DNA of 64,000 nucleotides from positions 2,206 to 66,205 of the forward strand of contig DATKOD010000003.1 of the NCBI GenBank assembly GCA_035524755.1. The letters are read 5' to 3'. Origin of the DNA: Minisyncoccota bacterium (GTDB lineage: Bacteria > Patescibacteriota > Minisyncoccia > 2-02-FULL-40-12 > GWA2-44-9). Shown here one piece after another: positions 11,940 to 48,932 of the stretch (the first letter of the stretch is position 1; each line of letters begins with the position of its first letter). Under the pieces are notes generated by a model that did no database searches, had not been told where the DNA came from, and saw only the letters and a program-made list of their open reading frames with translations. The position numbers and the translations under genes are program-made.

Positions 11940-13034
11940 TCAGACCTCATTGTCCACGCCGACCGCGTCGGCGACCGATGCGAATCCGTCCTTCCGGAGC
12001 AGCGCGGCGAGCCCCCTATTGATCTGACCGACCAGCTGGGGTCCGCGGAAGATCATGCCGGTGATGAGCTGCACCAACGACGCGCCGAGCCGGATCTTCC
12101 GGTATGCGTCCTCGGCGGTGAAGATGCCGCCGACGCCGATGATGGGGTAGTTCCCGTGCGTCCGCGCATACAGGTACCGCACCTGCTCGTCGGCCAGATG
12201 CTGGACGGCGCGGCCGGAAATGCCGCCGACATCGGGCACGATGGGGTCGTGGATACGATGGTTCGTCCTGTTCTTCGTCAGGTTACTGCAGACGAATCCC
12301 GTCACCCGATGACGGGAGCAGATGTCGATGAGCGCGTCCATCTGCTCGTGTTTCAGGTCGACCGCAAGCTTCAAGAACACGGGCTTGTCGGCATGCTCAT
12401 CGACACGGCCCAGGAGGCGGTCCAGGAGCAGCGGGTCGGTGAACGGTTCTCCGCCGAACGCGTTCGGACAACTGATGTTCACGGTAAGGTAATCCCCGAT
12501 GCCGCGGAACGCGTCGATGACATGCACATAGTCGGTGATGGCCGCCTCGGGTTCGGCGGTGGCGGGACTGTTCGTCTTCGCCGCACTAATGCCCACCGGG
12601 AAGCGCAGCGGCACGCCGCGCAGCCGTCCGGCGATGACGTCCGCACCGTCGTTCATCAACCCATAGTAGACGACCAGCGATTCGGATTTCTTCAGACGCC
12701 AGAGCCGCGGCCGTGGGTTTCCGGTGCAGGGCATCCCGGTCACGCTGCCCACTTCGGCGAATCCGAATCCGACGTCGGGAAGGACGTTCAGCAGCCGCGC
12801 GTTCTTGTCGAATCCCGCCGCAAGTCCGACCGGGTTCGGGAAGCGGATGCCGGCGACGGTCGTAACAAGCATCGGATCGTCATATGTGAGCACTGCGCGC
12901 GTCAATGCACGGAGCGGTGCGACCGCGCCCAACATCACGCCCAATCGGGTGACGCGGTCGTGTACGGCTTCAGGATCCATCCTGAAAAAGACCGGTTTTA
13001 CGATAATTCGGTACAGCGTTCCTATGATGTCCAT
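11940..13034 (-). CDS. pyrD: dihydroorotate dehydrogenase (quinone), class 2
   Basis: PyrD motifs are present: GLAAGFDKN, VGSVT, CPN, GGISG. Start set at MDIIGTLYR (M77 of the track ORF), immediately after the upstream gene's stop. Confidence 0.85.
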   Translation of the reverse strand: MDIIGTLYRIIVKPVFFRMDPEAVHDRVTRLGVMLGAVAPLRALTRAVLTYDDPMLVTTVAGIRFPNPVGLAAGFDKNARLLNVLPDVGFGFAEVGSVTGMPCTGNPRPRLWRLKKSESLVVYYGLMNDGADVIAGRLRGVPLRFPVGISAAKTNSPATAEPEAAITDYVHVIDAFRGIGDYLTVNISCPNAFGGEPFTDPLLLDRLLGRVDEHADKPVFLKLAVDLKHEQMDALIDICSRHRVTGFVCSNLTKNRTNHRIHDPIVPDVGGISGRAVQHLADEQVRYLYARTHGNYPIIGVGGIFTAEDAYRKIRLGASLVQLITGMIFRGPQLVGQINRGLAALLRKDGFASVADAVGVDNEV

Positions 13035-15876: not shown

Positions 15877-15948
15877 GCCCCTGTAGTTCAATGGATAGAA
15901 CTCCAGACTTCTAAGCTGGGTATCGAGGTCCGATTCCTCGCGGGGGCA
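15877..15948 (+). tRNA. tRNA-Arg (anticodon TCT)
   Basis: Hand fold: acceptor GCCCCTG/CGGGGGC (one G-U pair), D-stem GTTC/GAAC, anticodon loop CTTCTAA, T-arm CGAGG-TCCGATT-CCTCG, discriminator A. CCA is not encoded. Confidence 0.75.
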
Positions 15949-15965
15949 CCGATTGAGAATTCAGG

Positions 15966-16036
15966 CGGGCCGTCGTATACCGGTAGTACACGTGCTTTGG
16001 GTGCACGGTGACTGGGTTCGATTCCCAGCGGCCCGA
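15966..16036 (+). tRNA. tRNA-Pro (anticodon TGG)
   Basis: Hand fold: C1-G72 acceptor CGGGCCG/CGGCCCG, anticodon stem CGTGC/GCACG with loop TTTGGGT, T-arm CTGGG-TTCGATT-CCCAG, discriminator A. Confidence 0.75.
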
Positions 16037-16047
16037 CAGTCGAAAAC

Positions 16048-16118
16048 GCGGGATTGGTATAACGGTATTACGTCACCCTTCCAAGGTGAAGACAGGGGTT
16101 CAATTCCCCTATCCCGCT
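16048..16118 (+). tRNA. tRNA-Gly (anticodon TCC)
   Basis: Hand fold: acceptor GCGGGAT/ATCCCGC, anticodon stem TCACC/GGTGA with loop CTTCCAA, T-arm AGGGG-TTCAATT-CCCCT, discriminator T. Confidence 0.8.
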
Positions 16119-16180
16119 CCGACGACAGAAAACCCCGCAATATTGCGGGGTTTTCTGTTTGGCTCTAGAACCAATACGGA

Positions 16181-21176: not shown

Positions 21177-22541
21177 TCATGGTCTGACCGCGACAGGCGC
21201 CGATGCCGTGTACTCGTCGCGCAGGTATCGGAACTTATCCTGGACGTAGCCTTTCGTCTCGCTCAGGAGACACTGCCGGTACGTTGGCTTGCGACAGTCC
21301 GTACCACGGGCATCAACCCAGTCGGGCGAGTTCTTCTTGAGCGCGATGCGATAGACCGCGGTCACCCGCTTGGTGCCGGTATTGTATCCGGCGAACTGGA
21401 GCTCATCGATATGGGGATCGCTCATGATGGCCGTCCCGAACGCCTTCACGTAGTCGGCAAGCTGGAGATCCAGGAGCAGGATCGCCGCTTTCATGCTGTT
21501 GAGCGCCTGCCGCCGGCCGGTATTGGTGTCGGTCACGAGGCCTGCGGCCGGATATGCCTTCCGAACCATCGTATATGAACTCGCGATGAACTGCTGCGGA
21601 CCGCATGCGCCCGCCGGACTGCACGTGAACGATGCGAACATGTCGCCGTTGGCGCCGATGGTGGCGTAGACGCGGTTGGTCGTCCATTGCGGGTCCAAGA
21701 TGAACTCGGTCAGGTCCATGTGCTCGATGGGCATGATCTTGTCGATGGGGAACGCCTTCGGATATTTCGCGATGACGTCAGCGATGAGCATGCCGGGCAA
21801 CGCCCGCGAGACGACACCCCGCGCGCGTAGATCATCCGTCGCCTTCGCGATGGTATCCGCCACGTACCGTTGTCCTTCTGCGATCACGTCAGCCACCGCG
21901 ATCGGTTCGCTGTACGGTACGTTGATGAATTCGGTGACCCGCGGCTGTCCCTTCTTCGGTGCATCATTGACGATGGGATATTTCACCCCGACGACGATTG
22001 AATCGGACGGCGAAGCGATGGCGAACTGCGTGTTCCAGTTGTTCCACTCGATGCCGTTGGCACGGCGCACGACGCTCATCGCCCACCCCGCCGGCGCCTG
22101 GAGCACCGCGACCGGTTCATTCTTGATGGTCCACTTCGTGCCGGTGCGTGTCGCGACCGGGACGTTCATCTGCGCCATCCCGTACGTTTTCTTGACGGTG
22201 ATGACCGATGTCGTGCACGTCGTGGTGTTGAGCACCCGCACGGCGATGTCCTTGATGTAGTCCTTGTAGACCTTCAGGACGCCCAGACGCACTTCCACGT
22301 ATGAGTGGAGTTTCTGGTCGTACGACAACGATGCAGACGCCAACTGGACATCAGAAGGGGTCCCGGCGATGACTGAGGCGATGTCGCATGCGGGTTTCGG
22401 CGGCAGCACCGGAGACACATCCTCCGGCGCATAGAACCCGACCCGTACCGATGTCGGATCGGGTGCTTGTGCGTGCACCGATAGGACCCCGAAACCGACC
22501 GCGGCAATGACCGACGTTGTGGTGATCAGCAGTCTACGCAT
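21177..22541 (-). CDS. secreted hypothetical protein (signal peptide, several Cys pairs)
   Basis: Start at MRRLLITTTSVIAAVGFGVLSVHAQA (M18 of the track ORF); this signal peptide is cleavable. About 454 aa with no recognised domain. Confidence 0.7.
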   Translation of the reverse strand: MRRLLITTTSVIAAVGFGVLSVHAQAPDPTSVRVGFYAPEDVSPVLPPKPACDIASVIAGTPSDVQLASASLSYDQKLHSYVEVRLGVLKVYKDYIKDIAVRVLNTTTCTTSVITVKKTYGMAQMNVPVATRTGTKWTIKNEPVAVLQAPAGWAMSVVRRANGIEWNNWNTQFAIASPSDSIVVGVKYPIVNDAPKKGQPRVTEFINVPYSEPIAVADVIAEGQRYVADTIAKATDDLRARGVVSRALPGMLIADVIAKYPKAFPIDKIMPIEHMDLTEFILDPQWTTNRVYATIGANGDMFASFTCSPAGACGPQQFIASSYTMVRKAYPAAGLVTDTNTGRRQALNSMKAAILLLDLQLADYVKAFGTAIMSDPHIDELQFAGYNTGTKRVTAVYRIALKKNSPDWVDARGTDCRKPTYRQCLLSETKGYVQDKFRYLRDEYTASAPVAVRP

Positions 22542-22604: not shown

Positions 22605-23903
22605 TCACAGGTCGCTCTTGATGTTCGCCGCAAGCAGCTGGACGGAATTCGCATAGTTGACGCAGCTGGCGTTCGTGCTCGCAGCATTGCCGCAATAATA
22701 TTTCTTCGATGCCGCGATCTCTCCCGCACGGGTCTGGCTGCTGGCGCCGTCATTCGAAAGCTTCGCTGCGGCCGCGACGAACGCGTCTTCGATGTTCCAG
22801 GGATCGGGCAGCGCATGGCCGGATATCGCGGCGATCTGATCTCGATACCCCATCCACGTTGACGGCAAGAACTGCGCCGCACCCATGGCGCCTCCCCATT
22901 TGGAACCGCATGAGATCGGGGTCTGGAAAGGATCGCGGTTCAATTGCGCGGTGATACTGAGGAAATACGGGAGGTCTCTCGTGGGATTGATGCCGTAGGT
23001 ATAGATCTGGCCGTTCGTGATCCTCCGCGTCTCCCCGCTGGTCGAATCCACGATGTAGCACTTCCCGACGTTTGCCCCGAGCGCACTCTCTTGCTCGAGC
23101 TCCGCGATGAGGAACTCCGGCCGGATACCGGCTCCGATGGCGGCAAGCTGCCCATATTTGATCGCATCCTCTGCCGAGACGCCGTTCTGTTGCAGGTAGT
23201 AGATCTGTTCCTGCAGGCGTTGCAGATTCGTCTTGGTGGTCGCTACCAACTGTTGGTATTTGCTCTCTTGGCCCTGCGTCACCTTCAATAACTGGTTTTT
23301 GTCGGTTTTCGTCGTCGCAAGTTGACGCTGTTGCGCTTCTTGGAGCGCTTGAGCCTGCTCCAGACTCGTCTGTTGGTCCTGGAGCTGGGACTGTTGCTGG
23401 TCCAGTTGATCGCGCAAATCGCTGATGGACTGGATGGCCGTGCTCAGCGAGTCCTGCGTGCGCTGGATATCATGCACGCGGTCGAAGAAGTCCGACAGTG
23501 TGCCGCTCTGGAGCAGGATCATCGAGAGCGGTTGCAGATCGTTCTGCGCCGTTTCACGGAGCGCTGAGGCAAGCGCCTGCTGGTGCACCGAAATCTGCTG
23601 TTCCGCATTCTCGATGGCGGTCTGAGTCTGACCGATTTCAAGTCCGGTCTCATCGATGGACGCCTGGAGAGATTGGATCTGCGTGCTCAATACGCTGATC
23701 TGTGCGTTGAGCTTCGAGATTTCCGTCTGCAACGATTGCTTCTGTGTGCTCGCCTGGGTCAACTGCTCTTGCGCAGCGTCCAGCTGCGCCTGCAACTGCG
23801 TCTGCTTCTGTTGCAGGGCGGCAATCTCGTCCTGAACGGCCGCATGCGCCGTCAACGGAACGACGAGCGCACAAAGAGCGACGATTGCGACCAACCGCCT
23901 CAC
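22605..23903 (-). CDS. coiled-coil protein with C-terminal lytic murein transglycosylase (MltB/Slt35-like) domain
   Basis: A long Q/L-rich coiled coil follows the signal-like segment RRLVAIVALCALVVPLTAHA. The C-terminal region has GAMGAAQFLPSTW, the family-3 LT signature. A GTG start at ~23903 forms a GTGA overlap with the upstream stop; the track ORF extends to 23966. Confidence 0.8.
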   Translation of the reverse strand: MRRLVAIVALCALVVPLTAHAAVQDEIAALQQKQTQLQAQLDAAQEQLTQASTQKQSLQTEISKLNAQISVLSTQIQSLQASIDETGLEIGQTQTAIENAEQQISVHQQALASALRETAQNDLQPLSMILLQSGTLSDFFDRVHDIQRTQDSLSTAIQSISDLRDQLDQQQSQLQDQQTSLEQAQALQEAQQRQLATTKTDKNQLLKVTQGQESKYQQLVATTKTNLQRLQEQIYYLQQNGVSAEDAIKYGQLAAIGAGIRPEFLIAELEQESALGANVGKCYIVDSTSGETRRITNGQIYTYGINPTRDLPYFLSITAQLNRDPFQTPISCGSKWGGAMGAAQFLPSTWMGYRDQIAAISGHALPDPWNIEDAFVAAAAKLSNDGASSQTRAGEIAASKKYYCGNAASTNASCVNYANSVQLLAANIKSDL

Positions 23904-24346
23904 TGGACGATGATCGTACCGGTCTGCGACGCGTTCGATTCGTCCGCGTGGTTCAGGTAGTGGCACGTCTGTGAATCATTGAACGCCAATGAGTATGTCT
24001 CGCCGCGGTACAAGGAGCGGGTGGCGTCAAGTCCCGGGCAGCCGCCGGTGCCGCTGACGGTCATGGGCCAGAAGGCGATATCGGTGTCGTTGCGGAACGT
24101 GATGGCGTCACCGACCCGGATGGTGATGGTGGCCGGGGTCACGCCGGAAGCGGTCAGATGGACGATGTACCGCTGAGGTGTCGGGGTCGGCGTGGGGTAG
24201 TATCCGATGGGTGTGGGCGTCGGGGTCGGCGTCGTGGAATCGCTGGTCGAATCCGACCTCGTCGCCAGATACGTGATACCGACCGCCAGAAGCGCCACTA
24301 CGATGACCGAGATGATGAGTGTTCGTGAGGAGTACATAATCCCCAT
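23900..24346 (-). CDS. membrane-anchored hypothetical protein (TM, PT-rich linker, ~90-aa beta-rich domain, possibly cupredoxin/Ig-like)
   Basis: 148 aa with N-terminal TM LIISVIVVALLAVGITYL and a TPTPTPTP linker. The fold assignment is speculative. Confidence 0.6.
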   Translation of the reverse strand: MGIMYSSRTLIISVIVVALLAVGITYLATRSDSTSDSTTPTPTPTPIGYYPTPTPTPQRYIVHLTASGVTPATITIRVGDAITFRNDTDIAFWPMTVSGTGGCPGLDATRSLYRGETYSLAFNDSQTCHYLNHADESNASQTGTIIVQ

Positions 24347-24390: not shown

Positions 24391-24891
24391 ATGCACACAC
24401 GTCGGGTGCTCACTATTGGTGCCGTTCTCCTTATGGCAGTGCTTCCGGTCGTCGCGATTGCCGCTGATCAGCCGCTCCAATCAGGTTCTGATTCCCTCGG
24501 CGCAGCAGTAGCCTCGCTCTACCGATACGGCCTGAGCATCGTGGGTCTCGCAGTATTCGTTATGTTTTTGTATGCAGGACTCCTTAAGATGTTTTCGGAG
24601 ACTTTTATCAGCAAATGGGTACCGTCAGGTTGGGAAAAGAACTCTACCGTTGTCATTCAAGATGCGGTCATCGGGCTCATCCTCTTGTTCGCCTCATATC
24701 TCATCCTCAACACGATCAATCCTGATCTGGTGACGCCGCAGAAAGCGTCCCCGACGTCAACGACGACCTCGACCAGTTCTTCGGCGGGAACGGTGGGTCT
24801 TCCCACGAGCAGCAGCGTGCCGACGCCCGTACCGACATTCCAGGGCGGCGGAGGTTCATTCGGCGGCGGCGGTGCCTCAGGAACTTTTTGA
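24391..24891 (+). CDS. VirB2/TrbC-type (T4SS) pilin-like protein
   Basis: 166 aa with signal peptide MHTRRVLTIGAVLLMAVLPVVAIA. The mature part has two hydrophobic helices (LSIVGLAVFVMFLYAGLL; AVIGLILLFASYLILNTI) separated by a short loop, then an S/T-rich tail ending GGGGSFGGGGASGTF. The family call is by architecture only. Confidence 0.55.
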   Translation: MHTRRVLTIGAVLLMAVLPVVAIAADQPLQSGSDSLGAAVASLYRYGLSIVGLAVFVMFLYAGLLKMFSETFISKWVPSGWEKNSTVVIQDAVIGLILLFASYLILNTINPDLVTPQKASPTSTTTSTSSSAGTVGLPTSSSVPTPVPTFQGGGGSFGGGGASGTF

Positions 24892-24892
24892 T

Positions 24893-25090
24893 ATGGCATA
24901 CGTACTCGTCCTCCTTGCAGCACTCGGGATATTCGTTTACAGCACGCCTGCCCGCCAGGCGGTCAAGAATTCATTGGCAGCTATCGCGCAAAGCGCCGAA
25001 GTCAGACAGGCGGAAACCTACCTACGCGACAAAGTCACGGGATTCATCCGGACCGAGCTCCACCACGCGGTCGATGATGCGGTGAAATAG
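24893..25090 (+). CDS. small membrane protein (65 aa), hypothetical
   Basis: MAYVLVLLAALGIFVYSTPARQ... Its ATG sits 1 nt after the pilin-like stop (TGATATG). Confidence 0.4.
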   Translation: MAYVLVLLAALGIFVYSTPARQAVKNSLAAIAQSAEVRQAETYLRDKVTGFIRTELHHAVDDAVK

Positions 25091-25288: not shown

Positions 25289-25299
25289 TGACACCCGAA

Positions 25300-25327
25300 G
25301 GGAGATCCATGACGGACCTCCCTTTTT
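25300..25327. terminator. intrinsic terminator (GGGAGATCC-atgac-GGACCTCCC-TTTTT), bidirectional (also follows the dsbA-like stop at 25336)
   Basis: 9-bp stem with one mismatch plus a T5 tract. Confidence 0.5.
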
Positions 25328-25335
25328 CATTGCGG

Positions 25336-26097
25336 TCATTTCGCCAGTGCCGCGTCGATGACCTGCTGGAATGCGGCGAACGGCTGTGCACCGACCAGGG
25401 AGACGCCGTTGATGAAGAAACTCGGCGTTCCATCGACTCCCAATGCGGTACCGTCGGCTTGGTCCTTATCGACTTCGCTCGCGTATTTCTGTGAGTCCAG
25501 ACACTGATTGAATTTCGTCATATCCAGACCGATGTTCGAGACCCACGTCTTGATGTCGCTGACACTGAACGATACCGTCCCGCCGCTGGGGTCTTTGGCA
25601 TCCTGCCCCGCGAAGATCGCATCGTGGAACTGCCAGAACTTCCCCTGCTCCGCCGCACAGGCACCTGCCAGCGCGGCAGGGCGTGCAGAGGGATGCAGGC
25701 TGGTCAGCGGGAAATCACGGAAGACGAGGCGGACCTTGCCGGTATCGATATAGGTCTTCTTCAGCAGCGCGAAGGTGTCGTTGTAGAACGATCGGCAGTA
25801 CGGACACTGGAAATCACTGAACTCCACGATGGTCACCTTGGCGTCCGCATTCCCCAGGACCGGATCTTCACCGTCCTCAAGCTTGCTGGTATCGATCGGT
25901 GCGGCGGTTCCGTCCGCCTGCTGGGCAGGAGCAACGGACGGGCCGTGGAACAGCGATGCGGTACCGCCCGAACCGACGAACAGGACACTGGCTGCGATCA
26001 ACAGACCTGCGACGATGATGGCGCCCGGAACGGACATGAACGGTTGCTTCGGCTCCACCGGCTTCGGCTGCTCGCTGACCATCGGTTGTTCATCCAT
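25336..26097 (-). CDS. DsbA-family thiol:disulfide oxidoreductase (membrane-anchored)
   Basis: 253 aa with an N-terminal TM, the thioredoxin motif FSDFQCPYC, and a DsbA-like remainder. Confidence 0.85.
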   Translation of the reverse strand: MDEQPMVSEQPKPVEPKQPFMSVPGAIIVAGLLIAASVLFVGSGGTASLFHGPSVAPAQQADGTAAPIDTSKLEDGEDPVLGNADAKVTIVEFSDFQCPYCRSFYNDTFALLKKTYIDTGKVRLVFRDFPLTSLHPSARPAALAGACAAEQGKFWQFHDAIFAGQDAKDPSGGTVSFSVSDIKTWVSNIGLDMTKFNQCLDSQKYASEVDKDQADGTALGVDGTPSFFINGVSLVGAQPFAAFQQVIDAALAK

Positions 26098-26107
26098 GAA
26101 TGGAAAA

Positions 26108-26494
26108 TTAGGGTGTTACTGACGGCTTCGCTCCCAACGACAATGGGGCGACTTCCACGAGGATGTTCGCCACCGGGTCGTAGAGGATCCCGATCTGCGC
26201 CGTATTGTAGATGAGGACCTTGTCGCCGACTTTCGCATTCTTGAAGAATGGCTGGCCGGCGAGCTTTGACATGTCGGTGACCGTCGCGACCACGGGTGTC
26301 TCGCCGGTCGGCAGTGCGTACAACTTCCCGACGGCGGCCACCAGCCGTGAAACTTCATCGAGCGCCGCCTGTTGTGCATCAACCGGTTTCCGGCCCGACA
26401 CATACACGTACGATGCGGTGCCGACCGCAACGACGATCAGGACACCGGCACCGATGACGACGGGAAGTTTCATGGATGGCTTCCAGGATATCAT
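26108..26494 (-). CDS. membrane-anchored hypothetical protein (128 aa)
   Basis: Starts at MISWKPSMKLPVVIGAGVLIVVAVG; the ATG overlaps the VKOR stop (TGATG). The track ORF 26108..26806 extends 5' antisense into VKOR. Confidence 0.5.
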   Translation of the reverse strand: MISWKPSMKLPVVIGAGVLIVVAVGTASYVYVSGRKPVDAQQAALDEVSRLVAAVGKLYALPTGETPVVATVTDMSKLAGQPFFKNAKVGDKVLIYNTAQIGILYDPVANILVEVAPLSLGAKPSVTP

Positions 26495-26913
26495 CAGTCG
26501 CGTTTCATGACTACGATACCGAGTATCAACAGCGTGGTCGATGTGAGCGCCGAAAGCATGCAGTACTGGCAAAACGCGTGGAGGATGAATGCTTGGACGG
26601 CGACGAAATACAGCGTACCCAGGAAGCCCGCCACCGATAGCCATGCCGCACGGTGCAGGAACCGCCGGTCCCATGAATCGAAGTACATGACCAACAGAAC
26701 GATCATCGCACCGTAGAACAACAAGCCGGTGGCCGAAACCGGTACTGGACCGATGGATGAGAATCCGCTGGCAAGCACCGCCTCGCATCCCTTCAGGATG
26801 GTACACGGAGGAAGTATTCCGCGCACATGCTCGGCGGTCAGGTACGCGGAATCCGCGAACCCGATGAGGGCCGTGATGAACATCCCGATGACGATCGCTT
26901 TACTGATGCGCAT
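26494..26913 (-). CDS. vitamin K epoxide reductase (VKOR) family protein, a DsbB-equivalent
   Basis: 139 aa with 4 TM and the active-site CTILKGC (CxxC) loop, plus conserved Cys pairs. VKOR fills the DsbB role in several bacterial lineages (established knowledge). Confidence 0.8.
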   Translation of the reverse strand: MRISKAIVIGMFITALIGFADSAYLTAEHVRGILPPCTILKGCEAVLASGFSSIGPVPVSATGLLFYGAMIVLLVMYFDSWDRRFLHRAAWLSVAGFLGTLYFVAVQAFILHAFCQYCMLSALTSTTLLILGIVVMKRD

Positions 26914-27652
26914 TGAGCGGTTGCAAAACCTTCGCCTTGAAATCGTCGAAACTGGACGGTTGTGCCATCTGCGAACCGTTCACGAAGAACGTCGGCGTTC
27001 CGTTCACACCAGAAGACACCGCGCTGTCATAATCCGCATTGACCGCGGCGATGACCGGTGCGGAATCGATATCAGCGGTGAATTTCGTCACGTCCAAGCC
27101 GAGGCTTCCCGCGTATGAAATGAATTGCGCACGCGCCGCCGAAGCCGACAGATTCTCCCAGGTGGTTTGGGTATCGAACAGCTTGTCATGCATCTGCCAA
27201 AACTTCCCCTGTAACGACGCGGCCTGCGCCGCCTGGGCCGATTCCTGCGCGTTGGGATGGATATCCCGCAACGGGAAGTAGCGGTACACGAGACGGACCT
27301 TGCCCGCGACCTGCGGATCGGCAAGCAGTTGGTTCACGACCGGGTAATACGCGGCGCATGCCGGGCATTCGAAATCGCTGTACTCCAGAAGCGTGACCGA
27401 TGCACTGGCAGGACCGATACTGATATCGGACGCCGATACCGGCACCGAAAGCGTGCCGTTCGTGGTGGTCGTGGGAACGCTGCCCGCTGCGCGATACATC
27501 AACCAGCCGATGCCGACGAGCACCACCGCAACGATCGCCCACATGATGGAGCTTCGCACGATACGGCGACGCCGGTCTTGCTGCGACTGCATCTGACGCT
27601 CCTCGCGCCGCGCTTGCCGGCGCTCTTCTTTGCTCGATATCCGTCCGTCCAT
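26900..27652 (-). CDS. DsbA-family thiol:disulfide oxidoreductase, second paralog
   Basis: 250 aa with a TM anchor and the motif YSDFECPAC. Confidence 0.85.
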   Translation of the reverse strand: MDGRISSKEERRQARREERQMQSQQDRRRRIVRSSIMWAIVAVVLVGIGWLMYRAAGSVPTTTTNGTLSVPVSASDISIGPASASVTLLEYSDFECPACAAYYPVVNQLLADPQVAGKVRLVYRYFPLRDIHPNAQESAQAAQAASLQGKFWQMHDKLFDTQTTWENLSASAARAQFISYAGSLGLDVTKFTADIDSAPVIAAVNADYDSAVSSGVNGTPTFFVNGSQMAQPSSFDDFKAKVLQPLNAHQ

Positions 27653-29997: not shown

Positions 29998-32232
29998 CTA
30001 GCGGGCGCTGCAGGCGCAGCTGACGGTCAGCGACGCGTCATGCAACCAGGCCGCTTGGACGCCGCATGCCGTGCTGGTGGCGCTGTCGGTGAAGTCGTAC
30101 TCGTAGGTGGTCACGCCCGGGATGGAGCTCTGGTAGGTGGCATCGTCGCTGCCGTAGTAGTTGCTCCACTTGTAGTTGTTGTTGGAGTTGCCGTGGCGAT
30201 GCGGCGTGTCGCATTCGTGGTTGGGGCCGTCCTGCCAGGTTCCGCCGTCGGCCGTGCAGGCGTCTCGCGCATGGCTCGAGCTGTCGTGCATGTAGTACAC
30301 GTACTGCGTCGGTCCCGTCTGCGGGAGCTTGTAGAACGCGTAGAGCGTCTGGCTGTTGAAGCCCGTGAACGTGGCGCTCGCGCCGGGGCCCAGGTTGAAC
30401 GTGCCGTTCGGGATGATGCTGTCCGCGGGGTCGTCCTTGTTCGTGGCCACCACGATGGCGTACGTGACCTGGTCGCTCCGGTTGTTCTTCAGGGTCCAGG
30501 TGTTGACCTTCGGGCAGTCCTGCGGCGGGATCGCGATGCTGTAGGTGTGGTCGTAGCTCTTCGTGCACTGCAGCTCCGACGGGCCATAGCTGACCACCTC
30601 GGTGTAGACGTCCGAGAAGGTGAAGGTCGAGCCGTAGGCCGGGCGGTTCACCACCTTGGGCAACGGATCGGACCACGTGCCGCCCGACGGGCGAACCGTA
30701 CCGCTGGTCACCTTCTCGGTGGTCGCGGTCTTGTCGGTGAGGTCGAGGTCACCACGGAAGTCCGGCGGGGTCGGCGTGTAGTCGGCACAGGTCTTGGTGC
30801 GCGGCGGGATGACCACGGGCGTCGTCACCGGACAGGTCAGCGAACCGCGAACGACCGTCAGAGTCGCGGTGAGGGTCTGCTGGCTGTCGGTCTGAGCGTA
30901 GCCGTGCGTCACGTTGAACGGATTGTTCTCGTTGTCGGACGCTCCGTCGCCGTATGCCAGCGACCCGGTGCCGGGGTTCACCCAGCTGCCATGGAGGCCG
31001 ACGTTGTACGTGCTCGCGATGCTGGCACGCACCGACTTGGCGTGCACCGAGTCCGCCCCCACCGTGTAGGTGCTCAGCTGCGGGTTCACGTCTCCGCATG
31101 TCGGGTCCTTCGCGGGCACCGTCTTGGTGAAGGGCTTGGAGACCGTGCACTTGAGGTTGTCCGGGCCGTAGCTCTTCGTGTAGGTGTCGCTGAAGGAGGC
31201 GTCCGGCTGTCCGAAGTTCGGACGATTGACCGTCGCCGGAAGCGCGGTGGACCACGTGCCGCCCGTCGGAGCGACCGTGCCGGCGTCGAACGTGTAGCTC
31301 GACGGTCCGGGGGTCACGCCCAGGTCACCCGTGATGGTCGGCGGGGTGTAGTCCTTGCAGGTGGGGTTCGTGCCGACCGTGACGGTGATGGACGGGTCGC
31401 ACTCCACACCGCCGCCGGTGAGCTTCAGCTTGATGGTGAACTTCTGCTGCGGCTCGGCGGGGTACGTGTGGCTCACGGGGACACCGTTGGTCGCCGATGA
31501 GGTCGTGTTGTCGCCCCAGTCGAGGACGCCATTGATCTTGGTGTCGCCGACCTTGTGGTTGAACTTCGGCGTGACCGTGATCGTGGTGCCGTCCTGCGTG
31601 TACGTGAGCGATCCGTTGATGGTCTCGCAGGTCACGCAGGGCTCGGGGTAGTTGAACACCACCCCGAACGGCCACCTCACCTCGTCGGTCGCATTCTTGA
31701 AGAGGCCGTCGTGCTGGTCCATGCCGCAGGAGTTGACGCTCACGTCCCACTGCGTCGTGAGCTTGACGCCCACGGTGGACGCCTTGAACGTCAGGTGGTC
31801 GTTCTGGTCGGCCCCGTTGCCGGAGCCGGCCGAACCGCAGCTGTTCTCGGGGGCGTGGAACGCGCCTGAGCGCAGCCATCCGTCCGAGGCGCTGATGATG
31901 CCCCAGGTGACGGTGTACTTCTTCGACGCGGTCACGACCTGGCAGCGGTTGTCGAGCAGATCGAGGTTCGTATCGAGCACGCAGAACGTCAGGGTCTTGT
32001 CGCGAGAGCTGACCGTCTCCTTGCCCTCGCAGATGCCGGAGCCGGTGACCGTCTGGCCCGTGCCGGATGCCGGAGGCGCCGGGACGGACGCGTTGGAACC
32101 GCTCGTGGCGGGGGCCTCGGAGACGACACTCGGGGAGGTGGACGTGTCGCCGCCCTTGTTGCAGGCGACGGGAACGAGGCAGACCGCCGTCACGACGGCG
32201 GCGATGCCCAGGAACGTCATCAATCGACGCAT
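29998..32232 (-). CDS. large Cys-rich lipoprotein with two internal ~100-aa repeats, hypothetical
   Basis: 744 aa. Signal peptide plus lipobox (LVPVAC). Two paralogous modules (TCKDYTPPTITGDLG... and TCADYTPTPPDFRGDLD...). More than 30 Cys. The segment has extreme GC with open frames on all strands. Confidence 0.75.
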   Translation of the reverse strand: MRRLMTFLGIAAVVTAVCLVPVACNKGGDTSTSPSVVSEAPATSGSNASVPAPPASGTGQTVTGSGICEGKETVSSRDKTLTFCVLDTNLDLLDNRCQVVTASKKYTVTWGIISASDGWLRSGAFHAPENSCGSAGSGNGADQNDHLTFKASTVGVKLTTQWDVSVNSCGMDQHDGLFKNATDEVRWPFGVVFNYPEPCVTCETINGSLTYTQDGTTITVTPKFNHKVGDTKINGVLDWGDNTTSSATNGVPVSHTYPAEPQQKFTIKLKLTGGGVECDPSITVTVGTNPTCKDYTPPTITGDLGVTPGPSSYTFDAGTVAPTGGTWSTALPATVNRPNFGQPDASFSDTYTKSYGPDNLKCTVSKPFTKTVPAKDPTCGDVNPQLSTYTVGADSVHAKSVRASIASTYNVGLHGSWVNPGTGSLAYGDGASDNENNPFNVTHGYAQTDSQQTLTATLTVVRGSLTCPVTTPVVIPPRTKTCADYTPTPPDFRGDLDLTDKTATTEKVTSGTVRPSGGTWSDPLPKVVNRPAYGSTFTFSDVYTEVVSYGPSELQCTKSYDHTYSIAIPPQDCPKVNTWTLKNNRSDQVTYAIVVATNKDDPADSIIPNGTFNLGPGASATFTGFNSQTLYAFYKLPQTGPTQYVYYMHDSSSHARDACTADGGTWQDGPNHECDTPHRHGNSNNNYKWSNYYGSDDATYQSSIPGVTTYEYDFTDSATSTACGVQAAWLHDASLTVSCACSAR

Positions 32233-42719: not shown

Positions 42720-45149
42720 TTAGGTGGTACGTTCGAAGCGCTGCCGGATTTCTGATTCCACTTCTTCCCGCGGACGACCGAATTTCGCATGGCTGGATTC
42801 GATGATGGCATCGCGAACGGCCGGATCGCCTTTCGCCAGTCCGATCTCCGCGAGACCGCGCATGCTCGTAGGCCGCGCAACCTGACTGTTCACCAGCATG
42901 GATACATACGCATGGAAATTATCGATGTTGGAAACATCGTACGGAGAGAACACCGGTTCGAACTTCGTCTTCAGGAGCGGCATCTCGGCATCCTCCGGAC
43001 TGACACGGTACACCACCATGGTGCCGACGTTGCCGAAGACCGAATCGCGGATGGCGTCGTCAAGCTGCTTGATGAACTGATGCGCCATGATGAGACATAG
43101 GCGATACTTCCGGGCTTCCGCGAGGATGACCGAAATGGAATCCGTCGTGAAGTTCTGGAATTCATCCATATACAGATAGTGATCGGGCAGGTCAGCGCGT
43201 TTCGTATCGCGCGCCAATGCCGCACGGCGTAGTTTGCCGGTGATGACCATGCCCAACAGGTTCGCGTTCATATCACCGATCTTCCCTTTCGACAGGTTAC
43301 AGATAAGTATCTTCCGGTTCTCGATGACATCCCTGAAATCGATGACGCTCGTCTGTTGGTTCACGATGGGCCGCAGAAAATCATTGGACGTGAACGTATC
43401 GATCTTGCTGGTGACATATCCGGCGAAATTCGCCAGCGACTGGTCGCCGGTCATCTTCGTGGCTTCCAATTCCCAGAACTGCTTCACGACCGTGTTGGAC
43501 TCGTGCGCCAATAGGTCATTGCGGAATGCCTCGTCGACGAACACCCGTGACATGTCGGCCAGCGTCGGTACCCGCCGCTCGTAGTTATCGAGCAACAGGT
43601 ATGTCGCATTCTTGAAATACCGCTCGAACATCGGTCCGCCGGTCTCCTTGAGGTCGTACAGCTTCGACATGATCTCGAATAATTCGTCGATGATGAGCGT
43701 TTTATCCTGCGGATTGGACGGGTCGAACTCGAGCATGTTCAATCCCAGCGGGAACGACGTATCGCCGGGGTTGAAATAGATGACGTCGTCGATCCGTTCC
43801 TTCGGGACGTTCGCTAACACCCACTCCGCGAACGAGCCGTGCGGATCCAGTACCGTAATGCCGTCCCCCGACTCCAAATCCTGGGGTATCATCGACTGCA
43901 TCGTGACCGTTTTTCCGGTTCCGGTCTGTCCGATGATGTACATATGACGCCGACGGTCTTCGCGCGCGATGCGAAGCAGCGTCGACTGGCCCCGGTATTC
44001 GTTCATGCCGAACGCGATGCCATGCTCGGGAAGACCCGGTGGCGGCTCGGCCGTCTTGAAATTCACGAACTTGACCTTCGGCATGACCGCCATGCCGGTG
44101 GGAAAGTGGTACACGCTGGTAAGTTCCTCCGCCGACAGCGTGACCGTCTGAGCGTCATCGAACAGGCGAAAGGCGAATTCGAATTCCAACCGCTCCAACG
44201 CCTTGCCGGACAGTTTCTTCACGTTGAATCCGTTCCGGTCAGCCGTCGTATATTGCGAGAACGCGCCGGCGACATCGTTCATGATGGCATCCGCACGTTC
44301 CGGTGAGGACGATGAGGCGAGGATGCGAATGTTGCAGTCGAACAGCGGGCGTGATGCCTTGGACTGCAACGCGGTGATGAGTTTCTGTTCGAATTCGGTG
44401 GCGACCTTCGGCGGTTCTTTGAGCGCGGCGTCCGAGTCTCTCTTTTCATCCTTCTTCGGCGGATGCTGGGCGAGTTTGAGCGCTTTATGGAAATCATTGC
44501 CCGCCTGCATCTGACGTGCGGTATCGGACGCGAGTTTCCGGATCCCGGCATGCGACGACGGCCGGACCGCGATCTGGATGGCGACACCTTCGCCCTCCTT
44601 CTCGATCCTGCCCATCGCGCTCACCAGCGGACCGAGCGGATCGCTGGGCAGCTCGGTATAGGTCAGTACCGGCAGGATGGGATCCTCACGCTGGGTCAGG
44701 TAGGCGCCCGCCGAGCCGCCCTGCGGATTGAAAATGTTGTAATCCGGGCTCCGTTGAACGGTGGCGGTCGGAAACACGCCGACCATCTGCTTCTCGAACT
44801 GATCAGCGAACTTCGACGGCACCGCGGCGTAGAAATGGATCTGCTCGCCGATATGGTGCACCGCCATTTCCAGCACCAGGTACGGATCGCCGAACAGGAA
44901 CTTGTTCCACCCTTTGATCTTCAGGTTTGCCACCGACGCATACAACTGCTCCATGACCGCGATGAGTTTGCGTTCGTCCTTCTCCCCTCCCTCGGCGGCG
45001 AACCGCGGCAGAAGGAACAGCAGCAGCTGCATGTCCAGAGAACGCGACAACGACGTACGCGAACGGAGACCGTTGACGACGATCAACGCGGCGACGGCCA
45101 GAATGACCGCGACCAACGCCAAGAGTACAAGCGTGATGACGGGCGACAT
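42720..45149 (-). CDS. membrane-anchored AAA-like ATPase of the VirB4/TraC/HerA (DUF87) superfamily
   Basis: 809 aa with an N-terminal TM. Walker A (IIGQTGTGKT) at ~residue 405, Walker B (LYMDEFQNF), and a HerA/VirB4-like AEARKYRLCLIMAHQFIKQL motif. It has a ~380-aa non-ATPase N-terminal region. Confidence 0.7.
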   Translation of the reverse strand: MSPVITLVLLALVAVILAVAALIVVNGLRSRTSLSRSLDMQLLLFLLPRFAAEGGEKDERKLIAVMEQLYASVANLKIKGWNKFLFGDPYLVLEMAVHHIGEQIHFYAAVPSKFADQFEKQMVGVFPTATVQRSPDYNIFNPQGGSAGAYLTQREDPILPVLTYTELPSDPLGPLVSAMGRIEKEGEGVAIQIAVRPSSHAGIRKLASDTARQMQAGNDFHKALKLAQHPPKKDEKRDSDAALKEPPKVATEFEQKLITALQSKASRPLFDCNIRILASSSSPERADAIMNDVAGAFSQYTTADRNGFNVKKLSGKALERLEFEFAFRLFDDAQTVTLSAEELTSVYHFPTGMAVMPKVKFVNFKTAEPPPGLPEHGIAFGMNEYRGQSTLLRIAREDRRRHMYIIGQTGTGKTVTMQSMIPQDLESGDGITVLDPHGSFAEWVLANVPKERIDDVIYFNPGDTSFPLGLNMLEFDPSNPQDKTLIIDELFEIMSKLYDLKETGGPMFERYFKNATYLLLDNYERRVPTLADMSRVFVDEAFRNDLLAHESNTVVKQFWELEATKMTGDQSLANFAGYVTSKIDTFTSNDFLRPIVNQQTSVIDFRDVIENRKILICNLSKGKIGDMNANLLGMVITGKLRRAALARDTKRADLPDHYLYMDEFQNFTTDSISVILAEARKYRLCLIMAHQFIKQLDDAIRDSVFGNVGTMVVYRVSPEDAEMPLLKTKFEPVFSPYDVSNIDNFHAYVSMLVNSQVARPTSMRGLAEIGLAKGDPAVRDAIIESSHAKFGRPREEVESEIRQRFERTT

Positions 45150-45550
45150 CAGGGAGCGGGCTCAACCTTCCGGCGTTCCAGCAGTTGCGAGTGGAATTCA
45201 TCGGCGAGCACGTCGTGCAGTGCATCGATGAGCGCGGGATTGCCGGAAGCGACAGCCTGGTCGATGGCGGCCTGCAGGCTCTGCGTGAACACCACGTTCA
45301 CCAGTTGCTGCACCGGGCCGGCCAACGCCGGGTCCTGCCAGCTCGGCGTGCCTGCCACGGGTTGCGATGCCGCTGGCGCCGGTTGGTAGTTCGGCACTGA
45401 CTGTTGGATGCGTTCGCCGACCGCCTCATGCACTTCTGCCCGTTCATACGGCGTCGATGCGTCAGCGCCCAGCTCCGCGCGTTTCTCCTGGAGCCTGCGT
45501 TCCAGGTCTGCGATCTCCGTCTCGATCGGACCGGTGGTGTTCTCAGCCAT
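45149..45550 (-). CDS. hypothetical protein (~133 aa)
   Basis: Its stop overlaps the ATPase start (ATGA). No recognised domain. Confidence 0.45.
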   Translation of the reverse strand: MAENTTGPIETEIADLERRLQEKRAELGADASTPYERAEVHEAVGERIQQSVPNYQPAPAASQPVAGTPSWQDPALAGPVQQLVNVVFTQSLQAAIDQAVASGNPALIDALHDVLADEFHSQLLERRKVEPAP

Positions 45551-45581
45551 GCACATCCATTGTAGCACACCCCGTGCTACA

Positions 45582-47144
45582 ATGAAGCCAATGAAGCGTA
45601 ACGAATTGCTGGTCTTGCTGTTGATCCTTGCGATCGCAAGTTGGTTCCGGCTCGCCGGTCTTCACGACACGCCGCCCGGGCTCTACCCGGACGAAGCCAT
45701 GGTCGGCAACGAGGCTATCAATGCGTGGAACACGAAGACGTTCTCCGTCTTCTACCCGTACAACAACGGAGAAGAAGGCCTGTACGCCGATATCGCATCG
45801 ATCCCAATCCACTTTCTCGGCAATACGGCCTTTTCGCTCCGGCTCGTGTCAGCCATCGCAGGCATCCTGACGGTCCTTGGCGTCTATCTTCTGGCGCGGC
45901 GGATGTTCGACTCGTGGGAGCTCGCCGCGATGGCCGCATTTTTCTTGGCGACCGGTTTTTGGCATGTGAATTTCTCACGTATCGGGTTCCGCGCCATTCT
46001 GGCACCGATGTTCGCCGTATGGGGATTCTATGAACTCTATAAGGGCCTGGAGACCAACCGGATATGGCATTGGGTGTTGGCGGGTGTCTCGTTCGGTTTG
46101 GGCATGTACACCTACATCGCGTTCCGCGTGATGCCGTTGGCCATCCTCTTGGTGTTGGGGGCATACTGGCTTGCCCTCAGTGCGGCGTTCTCGCACGGAA
46201 AGTTCGCCTTCGTCCGACATCAGCTTGCCGGCGGTGTGGCGGCGATGATCGGTGTCGGGATCCTGGTCTGTCTGCCGATCGCCGCATATTTCGTCGGTCA
46301 TCCGGCTGACTTCGTCGGACGCACATCGCAGATTTCCGTATTCAGCACGTCCAATCCCGTGATGACCGTCGCCGTCAATACGGTGAAGACGCTCGGCATG
46401 TTCTTCCTGGCTGGTGATTCCAACTGGCGTCATAACATCTCTGGCGCGCCTATCCTGTTCTGGCCGGTCGCCGCGCTCTTCGCCGCGGGTCTCGTGCACA
46501 CGCTTTGGCGGTTCTATGATTCGTGGCGTAAGCGGGGACATCCTGGCGTGGTACAGACACTTCTCCTGTCGTGGTTCCTCATCGGCCTTATCCCTGAAAT
46601 CTTCTCCAATGAGGGGATCCCCCATGCGTTGCGTTCCATCATTGACGCTCCCGTGGTCGCCATCATTTCTGCCGTCGGGCTGCACTGGCTGACCGTGTGG
46701 CTACGGAAATGGTATGCCATGCGTGACACGCACAAGATTTGTCTGCCCGGCCCCCGCGGCCACCGCTGGTGTGTCGGTGAGGGTTCGTTGGTCGTCGGCA
46801 TCTCCGTCATCTCGCTGTTGTTCGCAATCGGTGTCGCCGAAGCGAACCGCTATTTCGTGACGTGGGCGCAGGATCCGAACGTGCCGGGTGCATTCAACGA
46901 GAACTACGCGGACATCGCACGCCACATCAACAGTCTGCCCCCCGCAACACTGAAATACGTCATCGTCAATGCCGGTGGAGTGCTCGTCAATGGCATCCCG
47001 ATGCCCGCACAGACCGTCATGTACCTGACGGATACGTGGACTCCCGCGGATCAGGCGGCACATCACGTGGTCTATCTCCTGCCCGAACAGGTCGCGTCCA
47101 CACGCATCCCCCGTGGCGCTGCCGTGTTTTCCATCGATCCATAG
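45582..47144 (+). CDS. GT39-family glycosyltransferase (PMT/ArnT-like, polyprenyl-phosphate-sugar dependent)
   Basis: Start at MKPMKRNELLVLLLILAIASWFRLAG. Multi-TM, with the DE-like motif YPDEAM in the first loop. Confidence 0.8.
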   Translation: MKPMKRNELLVLLLILAIASWFRLAGLHDTPPGLYPDEAMVGNEAINAWNTKTFSVFYPYNNGEEGLYADIASIPIHFLGNTAFSLRLVSAIAGILTVLGVYLLARRMFDSWELAAMAAFFLATGFWHVNFSRIGFRAILAPMFAVWGFYELYKGLETNRIWHWVLAGVSFGLGMYTYIAFRVMPLAILLVLGAYWLALSAAFSHGKFAFVRHQLAGGVAAMIGVGILVCLPIAAYFVGHPADFVGRTSQISVFSTSNPVMTVAVNTVKTLGMFFLAGDSNWRHNISGAPILFWPVAALFAAGLVHTLWRFYDSWRKRGHPGVVQTLLLSWFLIGLIPEIFSNEGIPHALRSIIDAPVVAIISAVGLHWLTVWLRKWYAMRDTHKICLPGPRGHRWCVGEGSLVVGISVISLLFAIGVAEANRYFVTWAQDPNVPGAFNENYADIARHINSLPPATLKYVIVNAGGVLVNGIPMPAQTVMYLTDTWTPADQAAHHVVYLLPEQVASTRIPRGAAVFSIDP

Positions 47145-47147
47145 CCC

Positions 47148-48932
47148 ATGCGAAAATTCCTGACGCCTGCCGCAGCTGCGCTCTGTATCGTCATCGTCGC
47201 CACCGTACTGGCGATCCTGTCATCACGGGATGATGCACCCATCGTCGACGAGGTCCCGCACATCGGCGCCGGATATTCGTACGTGAGTCAGTTGGACTAC
47301 CGGCTCAATCCTGAACACCCGCCGTTGGTCAAGGACATCGCCGGATTTTCGGTCTCATTGTTGCACGTACCCGCATCAGTGTTCATGACGACGATGTGGA
47401 TGAACGATGTGAACGGGCAGTGGGAATTCGGCCGCAATCTCATTTTCCATTCCGGTTTGAATGCCGACGCCGTCAAGACGTTCGCGCGCACACCGGAAAT
47501 GATCTTCTTCCTGGTCGCATGCTGGATCGTGTGGCGGTGGATGTCGGAACGTTACAGCAAGGGTACGGCACTCCTGGCGGTCACGTTGTTGGCGTTCTCG
47601 CCGACCGTGTTGGCACATGCGCGCCTGGTGACCACCGATATGGCTGCGGCGACCGGTGCGGTCCTGGCGACGTATTTCTTCGTGCGGTTCCTCCGTCGTC
47701 CCGGCGCCTGGCCGTTCGTCTGGTCCACATTGACATTAGGCATCGCGCTGGTATGTAAATTCAACGATGCGCTTTTGGGACCGTTTTTCCTGCTTGTCGC
47801 GTTCCTCTGGGGACTGGACGGTCACATCGGTTCCTCACGCGCGTGGAAGAACGCAGCGCGTATGGTCGGGTATGCTGTCGCGATCGGCGCCGCATCGTTC
47901 ATTCTCTTCGTCTGGCCGCTGTACATCGTCCAGACGCTCCATGAGCCGATCGCGAAACAGCACGCCGATACCATCGCCATCCTCGGCGCGCATCCGACCG
48001 GCATCCTGCAGAAAGCCGTCGTCTGGGCGTCCGATAAACCCATCATCCGTGCCGCGGGCCACTGGGGTCTAGGACTATCGATGGTCGCTCAGCGCGAATC
48101 GGGCGGCAACACCATCTATTGGATGGGTCGAGTGGTCACCAGCGGCGGAGTCTGGTACTTCCCCATCATCTATCTCCTCAAAGAGCCGATCGCCTGGTGG
48201 ATTTTGATGGCATTTGCCGTCACTGCGTTTGCCTTCCATAGACGCCGCCACGCCGGCGAACCGAAGAACGGCACCTGGTGGGCACGGAATGCCGACGAAT
48301 GGGTGTGGGTTCTGTGGCTCATCATCTATTGGGCGGTATCCATGCAGAGCACGCTGAACATCGGCATCCGGCATCTATTGCCGGTCTATCCGTTCACCAT
48401 CATGCTGGTCGCCGGGCGCATCGGTGTCATGAATGACTGGCTGCGCCGTCACAACCCGGACATGGTCAAGCTGTTCACCGTCACTATCGGGCTGTTGGTC
48501 GGCTGGTATGTCTTCGAATCCGTGAGTGTGTATCCGTTCTACCTGACGTATTTCAACCAGATCGCCGGCGGACCGTCGGGTGGCTACCGGTATGTGACGG
48601 ATTCGAACCTGGACTGGGGGCAAGACATCAAACGCCTTGGTATCTACGTGGACGATAACCGTATCCGCGCAGTATCGCTGGACTATTTCGGATGGTCGGA
48701 CCCCTCCTACTATCTGGGATCTAAGTATGTTTGGACGACCGGTTCGGATTGGAAAGATGCGAAGGATTTCATCCGGCGGAACCGCTCCGACGGTTGGATC
48801 GCCGTGTCCGCGACATTCTTCCAGGAATCCGTCTTCCGTGCCGACGGCCAGGGCGCGTACCGATGGCTTTTGGATTACACGCCCGTCACCGTCATCGGCC
48901 ATTCCATCTTCGTCTGGCATATCACGAAGTAA
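47148..48932 (+). CDS. GT39-family glycosyltransferase, second paralog
   Basis: 594 aa, multi-TM, with an early DE motif (VDEVPH). Adjacent to the first paralog. Confidence 0.8.
   Translation: MRKFLTPAAAALCIVIVATVLAILSSRDDAPIVDEVPHIGAGYSYVSQLDYRLNPEHPPLVKDIAGFSVSLLHVPASVFMTTMWMNDVNGQWEFGRNLIFHSGLNADAVKTFARTPEMIFFLVACWIVWRWMSERYSKGTALLAVTLLAFSPTVLAHARLVTTDMAAATGAVLATYFFVRFLRRPGAWPFVWSTLTLGIALVCKFNDALLGPFFLLVAFLWGLDGHIGSSRAWKNAARMVGYAVAIGAASFILFVWPLYIVQTLHEPIAKQHADTIAILGAHPTGILQKAVVWASDKPIIRAAGHWGLGLSMVAQRESGGNTIYWMGRVVTSGGVWYFPIIYLLKEPIAWWILMAFAVTAFAFHRRRHAGEPKNGTWWARNADEWVWVLWLIIYWAVSMQSTLNIGIRHLLPVYPFTIMLVAGRIGVMNDWLRRHNPDMVKLFTVTIGLLVGWYVFESVSVYPFYLTYFNQIAGGPSGGYRYVTDSNLDWGQDIKRLGIYVDDNRIRAVSLDYFGWSDPSYYLGSKYVWTTGSDWKDAKDFIRRNRSDGWIAVSATFFQESVFRADGQGAYRWLLDYTPVTVIGHSIFVWHITK

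Follow-up and report, generated by a model that had tools for sequence, protein, structure and literature searches.

A predicted DsbA-VKOR disulfide-forming gene cluster with two DsbA paralogues and a small cysteine-free gene in a Candidatus Paceibacterota genome

The DsbA-DsbB pair of E. coli couples a soluble extracytoplasmic CxxC oxidase to a quinone-linked, four-helix membrane protein with two cysteine pairs. VKOR belongs to a different family from DsbB. In the actinobacterial systems (M. tuberculosis Rv2969c-Rv2968c and those of Actinomyces oris and Corynebacterium) the gene of a membrane-anchored DsbA, or MdbA, immediately precedes that of a stand-alone VKOR in one operon. The M. tuberculosis DsbA (MtbDsbA) carries the active site CPAC, lies in an operon with VKOR and includes a second disulfide, C140-C192 (PMC3792642, PMC3853704). 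In Synechococcus the thioredoxin-like partner is fused to VKOR (fifth helix plus domain; structures 3kp9, 4nv5 and 4nv6). Bacteria with several DsbA proteins such as Neisseria and Salmonella (PMC6067686) combine their paralogues with one membrane oxidase, DsbB or DsbI, and substrate specialisation is presumed. In the Candidate Phyla Radiation (CPR), Meheust et al. 2019 described an enriched MdbA-like oxidoreductase family (fam000318) with a conserved CxxC, found adjacent to a VKOR (fam000898) in 88 of 750 genomes, and proposed a role in the folding of pilins and surface proteins (PMC6744442). Here we describe a cluster at positions 25336-27652 of a 64-kb stretch of a Candidatus Paceibacterota (CPR) genome (the window, G+C about 60%). 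It is a disulfide-forming cluster of the kind already reported in CPR, with the same pairing in the same organisms. It consists of four tightly packed, co-oriented minus-strand open reading frames (ORFs) transcribed in the order anchored DsbA (CPAC), VKOR, an anchored protein of 121 or 128 amino acids (aa) and a second anchored DsbA (CPYC). Sequence comparison and structural models make it likely that these genes specify an extracytoplasmic disulfide-forming pathway of the Gram-positive/actinobacterial MdbA(DsbA)-VKOR type, accompanied by a small passenger gene. The features are the following (bp, base pairs; nt, nucleotides):

26900..27652, minus strand: DsbA-like thiol oxidase type 1, 250 aa, N-terminal anchor (Pfam, CPAC, Thr-cisPro loop)
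26494..26913, minus strand: minimal four-helix VKOR, 139 aa (Pfam, four Cys, fold model)
26108..26494, minus strand: small Cys-free membrane-anchored protein, 128 or 121 aa (one transmembrane helix plus conserved domain)
25336..26097, minus strand: DsbA-like thiol oxidase type 2, 253 aa, N-terminal anchor (Pfam, CPYC, Thr-cisPro loop)
25290..25315, minus strand: GC-rich hairpin, 10 bp, about 20 nt past the last stop codon (fold of 25345-25240)

The VKOR protein matches the Pfam VKOR profile (PF07884) over residues 11-131 with a score of 82 bits (cut-off 27.5, E 5.6e-23). Its loop Cys pair, C37/C43, has the spacing Cx5C within the motif CTILKGC (26805-26785), and the redox-centre CxxC is C115-Q-Y-C118 (26571-26560), located at the outer end of helix 4. 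An earlier note on this DNA correctly recognised a VKOR homologue but took CTILKGC for a CxxC loop; the genuine CxxC is the CQYC of residues 115-118. The core is the same as that of Synechococcus VKOR and the two motifs (Cx5C and CxYC) align with it residue by residue, C37/C43 with C50/C56 and C115-Q-Y-C118 with C130-M-Y-C133 of 4nv6. Both Cys pairs are therefore present, and all four residues are invariant across 31 homologues (32-78% identity), as is S49, the conserved Ser between helices 1 and 2. The AlphaFold2 model (predicted local distance difference test, pLDDT, 88.4; predicted template-modelling score, pTM, 0.81) shows helices at residues 5-31, 59-80, 83-111 and 116-138 and a short loop helix. 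In a Foldseek search of the PDB the top 14 matches to this model are all VKORs, each with probability 1.00; the template-modelling score (TM) of one match is 0.63 and those of the other 13 lie between 0.69 and 0.80, the Synechococcus structures giving 0.70-0.80. The charged short loops agree with an orientation in which both Cys pairs lie outside the membrane. Compared with the actinobacterial proteins this VKOR is minimal (four helices, 139 aa). In contrast to the Synechococcus fusion, its thioredoxin-like partner is not attached to it but is the product of the overlapping upstream gene.

This upstream gene encodes a DsbA-like protein recognised by the Pfam profiles Thioredoxin_4 (94.7 bits, cut-off 23.2, E 9e-27) and DSBA (59 bits, cut-off 25.6, E 7e-16). 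It has a single N-terminal hydrophobic segment, with an Arg-rich tail ahead of it, the active site CPAC at residues 96-99 (codons 27367-27356) and a Thr-cisPro loop reading GTPTFF. The unusual CPAC motif and the Thr-cisPro loop are shared with MtbDsbA. Its best match among solved structures is Corynebacterium MdbA (4pwp/7unn), the closest solved relative of both DsbA proteins of the cluster, followed by a "27kDa outer membrane protein" (3gyk), a protein disulfide isomerase (4n30) and BdbD. The end of the gene, including its stop codon, overlaps the start of VKOR by 14 nt (26913-26900). In the DsbA tree the proteins encoded upstream of VKOR form one clade corresponding to an orthologous group, with CPAC in 61 of the 67 members whose motif is readable. 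Because its gene overlaps the VKOR start and immediately precedes VKOR in almost every relative, the CPAC DsbA is likely the dedicated partner of VKOR.

The association of the two genes is conserved. When metagenome contigs were scanned with the VKOR alignment, 80 loci (36-100% identity) were recovered. In 75 of these VKOR is immediately preceded by a DsbA-like ORF of the same strand, which usually overlaps the VKOR ORF. Among the other five, VKOR is situated at a contig end in four, locus L135 being the fifth. Such a proportion argues that the adjacency is not due to chance. The proposal of the earlier note, an oxidative-folding cassette of DsbA and VKOR in which VKOR takes the place of DsbB, is thus supported by family membership, catalytic residues, predicted topology and conserved gene order. 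The E. coli system follows the same logic; however, no DsbB was seen here and the DsbA proteins are anchored rather than soluble.

A second DsbA gene downstream of VKOR (dsbA2) is restricted to the closer relatives (L089-L091, L093-L095, L097, L099 and L100), where its product carries CPYC or CPFC. The small gene is missing from seven relatives with the order DsbA-VKOR-DsbA (D-V-D), namely L091, in which there is a gap of about 1.4 kb, L093, L094, L095, L097, L099 and L100. Only two of the 80 VKOR loci, L090 and L089 (the latter identical to the window), have the small gene between VKOR and DsbA (D-V-x-D). Among the loci found by way of the small protein, L001/L002 and L011 also hold it at this position. 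L094 and L097 group with L011 in the DsbA tree; there the gap between vkor and dsbA2 is only 51-58 bp and the small gene is absent. The whole neighbourhood is syntenic between the window, L001 and L011. In L002 (1774-3250) VKOR (a 107-aa fragment) and the downstream DsbA (115 + 129 aa) are split by frameshifts, a sign either of a decaying cassette or of misassembly.

The downstream DsbA matches both Pfam profiles as well (Thioredoxin_4: 127.4 bits, cut-off 23.2, E 8e-37; DSBA: 72 bits, cut-off 25.6, E 7e-20). Its active site CPYC occupies residues 98-101 (25806-25795), the Thr-cisPro loop reads GTPSFF and a single hydrophobic segment is located at the N-terminus. Two anchored DsbA paralogues (CPAC and CPYC) surround VKOR as the earlier note described, each with its Pfam matches, motif and N-terminal hydrophobic anchor. 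The closest solved relatives of the downstream protein are Corynebacterium MdbA (6e-27) and then BdbD of B. subtilis (3e-20), and homologues of this type are very numerous (more than 7,550 at E <=1e-10). A second conserved Cys pair, C147/C199, lies within the helical insert. Across 33 homologues of the downstream type C98, C101, C147 and C199 are invariant, and T224 and P225 are invariant as well. C147 and C199 are located 49 and 101 residues from the CxxC, close to the spacing of the structural disulfide C140-C192 of MtbDsbA (51 and 103 residues; PMC3792642, PMC3853704). By analogy, C147-C199 probably forms a structural disulfide. However, the extra pair belongs here to the CPYC paralogue and not, as in MtbDsbA, to the CPAC protein.

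The two DsbA proteins of the window are 36% identical to each other, and in the tree the upstream (CPAC) and downstream (CP[YF]C) types form two separate deep clades. A recent tandem duplication is ruled out by this topology. Functional specialisation of the two proteins, suggested by the earlier note, is plausible, since they are deep paralogues, each with its own conserved motif, and the downstream type has an additional invariant Cys pair. The downstream DsbA is probably a second oxidase with a substrate range of its own. The presence of two deep paralogues flanking VKOR distinguishes the cluster from the actinobacterial systems, and their position on either side of a single VKOR gene distinguishes it from the multi-DsbA systems of Neisseria and Salmonella, which use DsbB or DsbI.

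The product of the third gene includes no Cys. A membrane anchor is followed by a domain of about 75 aa, predicted to be extracytoplasmic and of alpha+beta type, with the conserved pattern LPTGExPxVATV...FFxNAKxGDKVLIY. Translation could begin at ATG 26494 (128 aa) or at ATG 26473 (121 aa). The latter start is called by NCBI and in most relatives, and GGAAG is found 6 nt before it; the relative P0004 has a similarly extended N-terminus. With the start at 26473 a gap of 20 nt separates the gene from vkor in place of a TGATG overlap. The arrangement of four minus-strand genes with overlapping stops and starts given in the earlier note accordingly holds for the ORFs, for the 14-nt overlap and for the string TGATG itself (26496-26492), while the TGATG overlap vanishes if the small ORF starts at 26473. 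The spacing to the downstream dsbA is 10 nt. The protein matches no Pfam and no NCBIfam profile. In its model (pLDDT 85.6) a single helix packs against a sheet of four strands, and the structural search returned no significant neighbour and none resembling a known redox accessory.

The small protein nevertheless belongs to a large family, contrary to the possibility that the ORF is not conserved. A word-based search found 62 homologues, a profile search assembled 6,876 clusters at 50% identity, and a genome scan with a 26-sequence subset of the alignment revealed 380 relatives across Patescibacteria. Neighbours were counted in 86 loci (L003-L088). Directly upstream of the homologues, a repeat-rich surface protein of about 1,100 aa is encoded in 52 of them; directly downstream, a protein of about 436 aa with fn3, Big_6 and dockerin domains is found in 38 and, further downstream, one of about 321 aa in 29. 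Tandem paralogues of the small gene are present in eight loci. Together with the surface and dockerin genes, the family constitutes a conserved CPR surface-protein neighbourhood, apparently one not described before. Examples of family neighbourhoods can be seen in L044 (3549-4856) and L061 (2-3349). A C-terminal LytR_C domain was identified in nine of ten longer family members tested, a fusion suggesting a link to the cell envelope. The small protein, for its part, is not a LytR_C protein (PF13399): it is without a Pfam match, and LytR_C is an extra C-terminal domain of the longer members only. Within the window, a 925-aa ORF without Pfam match (61207-63984, minus strand) includes a segment of 161 residues with 37% identity to the giant surface proteins flanking the small-protein homologues of other CPR genomes.

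No consistent co-location that would indicate a dedicated VKOR/DsbA accessory was observed (one of 80 small-protein loci and two of 80 VKOR loci): among the 80 best species-level loci, drawn from the 380 relatives, VKOR and DsbA surround the homologue in L011 alone. In the tree of the small protein, the L011 copy is the nearest outgroup of the cassette copies of the window clade, although the domain is short and gives little resolution. This pattern fits a single capture of the small gene followed by its loss in some relatives. A co-transcribed envelope passenger with no part in the redox pathway is the most likely interpretation of this gene: its product has no Cys, the family is CPR-wide and found beside surface genes, and the gene is absent from several D-V-D relatives. 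For the same reasons a place of the 128-aa protein in the redox machinery, implied by the earlier note, is not supported. An unrelated small envelope gene inside the cluster is a further difference from the actinobacterial systems, as is a host lineage reported to lack quinone biosynthesis.

In the mechanism that we propose, oxidised DsbA would hand its disulfide to exported proteins and the loop pair C37/C43 of VKOR would re-oxidise the reduced DsbA. The electrons would pass from C37/C43 to C115/C118 and then to a membrane quinone. The CPYC DsbA would act as a second oxidase with a different substrate range. The small gene would have landed between vkor and the second dsbA in a narrow clade, where it would be co-expressed with them and remain outside electron transfer.

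Several observations weigh against this scheme. Parcubacteria have been reported to lack quinone biosynthesis (PMC4508563). The downstream DsbA may also be recycled by VKOR, as the scheme supposes, but this rests on an assumption. The small gene is kept between vkor and dsbA2 down to about 54% identity (window compared with L011), with spacings of 0-20 and 10 nt, and a functional tie, instead of hitch-hiking, could explain why its position is retained. Since the whole neighbourhood is syntenic, gene order alone decides neither for a passenger nor for an accessory; the retention of the gene in L001 and L011 may equally be a matter of shared ancestry.

The first alternative concerns the division of labour between the two DsbA proteins. 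Only the CPAC DsbA might work with VKOR, the CPYC paralogue being an isomerase or reductase, or an enzyme whose re-oxidation depends on the first DsbA or on small-molecule oxidants. We regard this as a real, if lesser, possibility. It would agree with the separate deep clade of the CP[YF]C type and with its very wide distribution (over 7,550 homologues), with locus L018, which has a CP[YF]C DsbA and no VKOR in the locus, and with the finding that CPR DsbA-like genes adjoin VKOR in only 88 of 750 genomes (PMC6744442). However, at least 10 loci of the clade retain the CPYC type right after vkor, the closest solved relatives of the protein (MdbA and BdbD) are oxidases, and it is devoid of a dimerisation domain of the DsbC/DsbG kind.

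The second alternative makes the small protein a clade-specific Dsb accessory, either an adaptor or chaperone presenting envelope proteins to the second DsbA or a stabiliser of a VKOR-DsbA complex. In the window, L001, L090 and L011 the gene lies between vkor and dsbA2 on the same strand with hardly any intervening sequence, the cassette copies of the window clade are mutually nearest, consistent with one retained capture, and the predicted extracytoplasmic location is shared with the DsbA domains. The absence of Cys speaks against such a role, as does the structural search, which revealed no likeness to a known redox accessory. Moreover, VKOR and DsbA adjoin the homologue in a single one of the 80 best loci, the usual partners being surface, dockerin and cohesin proteins, and the D-V-D relatives L094 and L097, sister to L011 in the DsbA tree, do without the gene. 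An accessory role is therefore unlikely, a co-transcribed passenger being the more probable reading.

To our knowledge CPR genomes do not include vitamin-K-dependent carboxylation, which counts against a VKOR homologue serving quinone or quinone-epoxide metabolism with the DsbA genes merely adjacent. Although animal enzymes of the VKOR family reduce quinones and epoxides, and viral VKORs have been linked to lipid redox modules (PMC13486548), this last explanation is highly improbable in view of the dsbA-vkor order conserved in 75 of 80 loci, with ORFs that usually overlap, and of the bacterial VKORs with this Cys pattern that complement dsbB (PMC12453122, PMC3853704).

The cluster is bounded by a divergent 2-hydroxyacid dehydrogenase gene that begins 56 bp upstream and by a convergent ORF downstream that ends at 25090. 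Scans for promoters and terminators gave no more matches than in shuffled sequence. The hairpin at 25290..25315 (stem GGGAGGUCC...GGAUCUCCC, minus-strand fold of 25345-25240) is not among the terminator-scan matches; it has a z-score of only -1.6 and no U-tract, and is a possible non-canonical end of the transcription unit.

Several exported proteins encoded nearby had been named by the earlier note as likely clients of the pathway. As a linked set they do not stand. The 744-aa putative lipoprotein (29998-32232, minus strand), which is without Pfam match, includes 22 Cys and not more than 30, the 471-aa protein at 21177 includes 6 (1.3%), few for a protein described as Cys-rich, and the pilin-like protein of 166 aa (24391-24891, plus strand), which is divergently encoded and has three hydrophobic segments, includes none. 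Moreover, the lipoprotein gene is absent from the syntenic locus L001, where the genes for glycerate kinase and an AI-2E transporter are adjacent, and its G+C content at third codon positions (GC3) is 0.93 compared with about 0.75 in the neighbours. On both grounds it looks like a strain-specific insertion, and it was rejected as a conserved linked client. An anchored protein of 148 aa (23900-24346, minus strand) has two Cys, which are conserved in the L011 orthologue, and is a plausible DsbA client. L001 has counterparts of the 148-aa and 166-aa proteins that match them in size and position, and L011 encodes sequences similar to both. The mature Cys counts of the nearby exported proteins are all even (6, 4, 2 and 20, the last count excluding the presumed lipid-modified Cys24), which fits active disulfide formation, though as an anecdotal observation.

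Other features of the window include a coiled-coil protein with an SLT domain (22605-23966), whose gene adjoins those of the 148-aa and 166-aa proteins. The minus strand at 42720-45149 specifies an 809-aa ATPase similar to HerA or to a coupling protein of type IV secretion. It is followed at 45408-48932 (plus strand) by a tandem pair of PMT_2 glycosyltransferases, both with numerous membrane segments. Three tRNA genes (Arg-TCT, Pro-TGG and Gly-TCC) form a tight cluster at 15877-16120 (plus strand), and those for tRNA-His and tRNA-Gln are present as single genes elsewhere.

The survey of fam000318 and fam000898 did not separate the CPAC and CP[YF]C types and did not describe the D-V-D and D-V-x-D layouts (PMC6744442). 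The present analysis adds to it in several respects. The VKOR-coupled DsbA constitutes a distinct orthologous group with CPAC in 61 of 67 members, and the widespread four-Cys CP[YF]C type is recruited beside VKOR only in a sub-clade. The two layouts themselves are additions, as is a large unannotated CPR envelope family (about 6,900 clusters), which merits a family description. The cassette is a clean example of the MdbA/DsbA-VKOR pathway in CPR.

The weightiest question that it raises is that of the electron acceptor of VKOR. For Clostridia that have VKOR and lack quinone synthesis, scavenged quinones have been proposed (PMC12453122). A dihydroorotate dehydrogenase (DHODH) is encoded in the window at 11940-13031 (minus strand), 13 kb from the cassette. 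Its NCBIfam scores exceed the cut-offs of the quinone-dependent class (359 bits compared with 267; TIGR01036, 290 compared with 200), and class 2 structures match it far better than those of class 1 (E 4e-61 and 1e-13, respectively). However, it has a Cys (NISCPN) where the aligned rat class 2 enzyme reads NVSSPN, the Ser of which we take to be the catalytic base of class 2 enzymes. An enzyme of class 2 type hints at a quinone pool in the cell. As dsbA-vkor and such a DHODH occur together in a lineage reported to lack quinone biosynthesis, oxidative protein folding could depend on a quinone that the cell cannot make and that its membrane would take up from the host or community. A role of the small protein as a new clade-specific adaptor between Dsb and surface-protein assembly would be an additional possibility. 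This reading is tentative and rather unlikely. The surface proteins and pili of CPR are thought to mediate host attachment. If true, quinone scavenging would tie the maturation of envelope proteins to the symbiotic partner.

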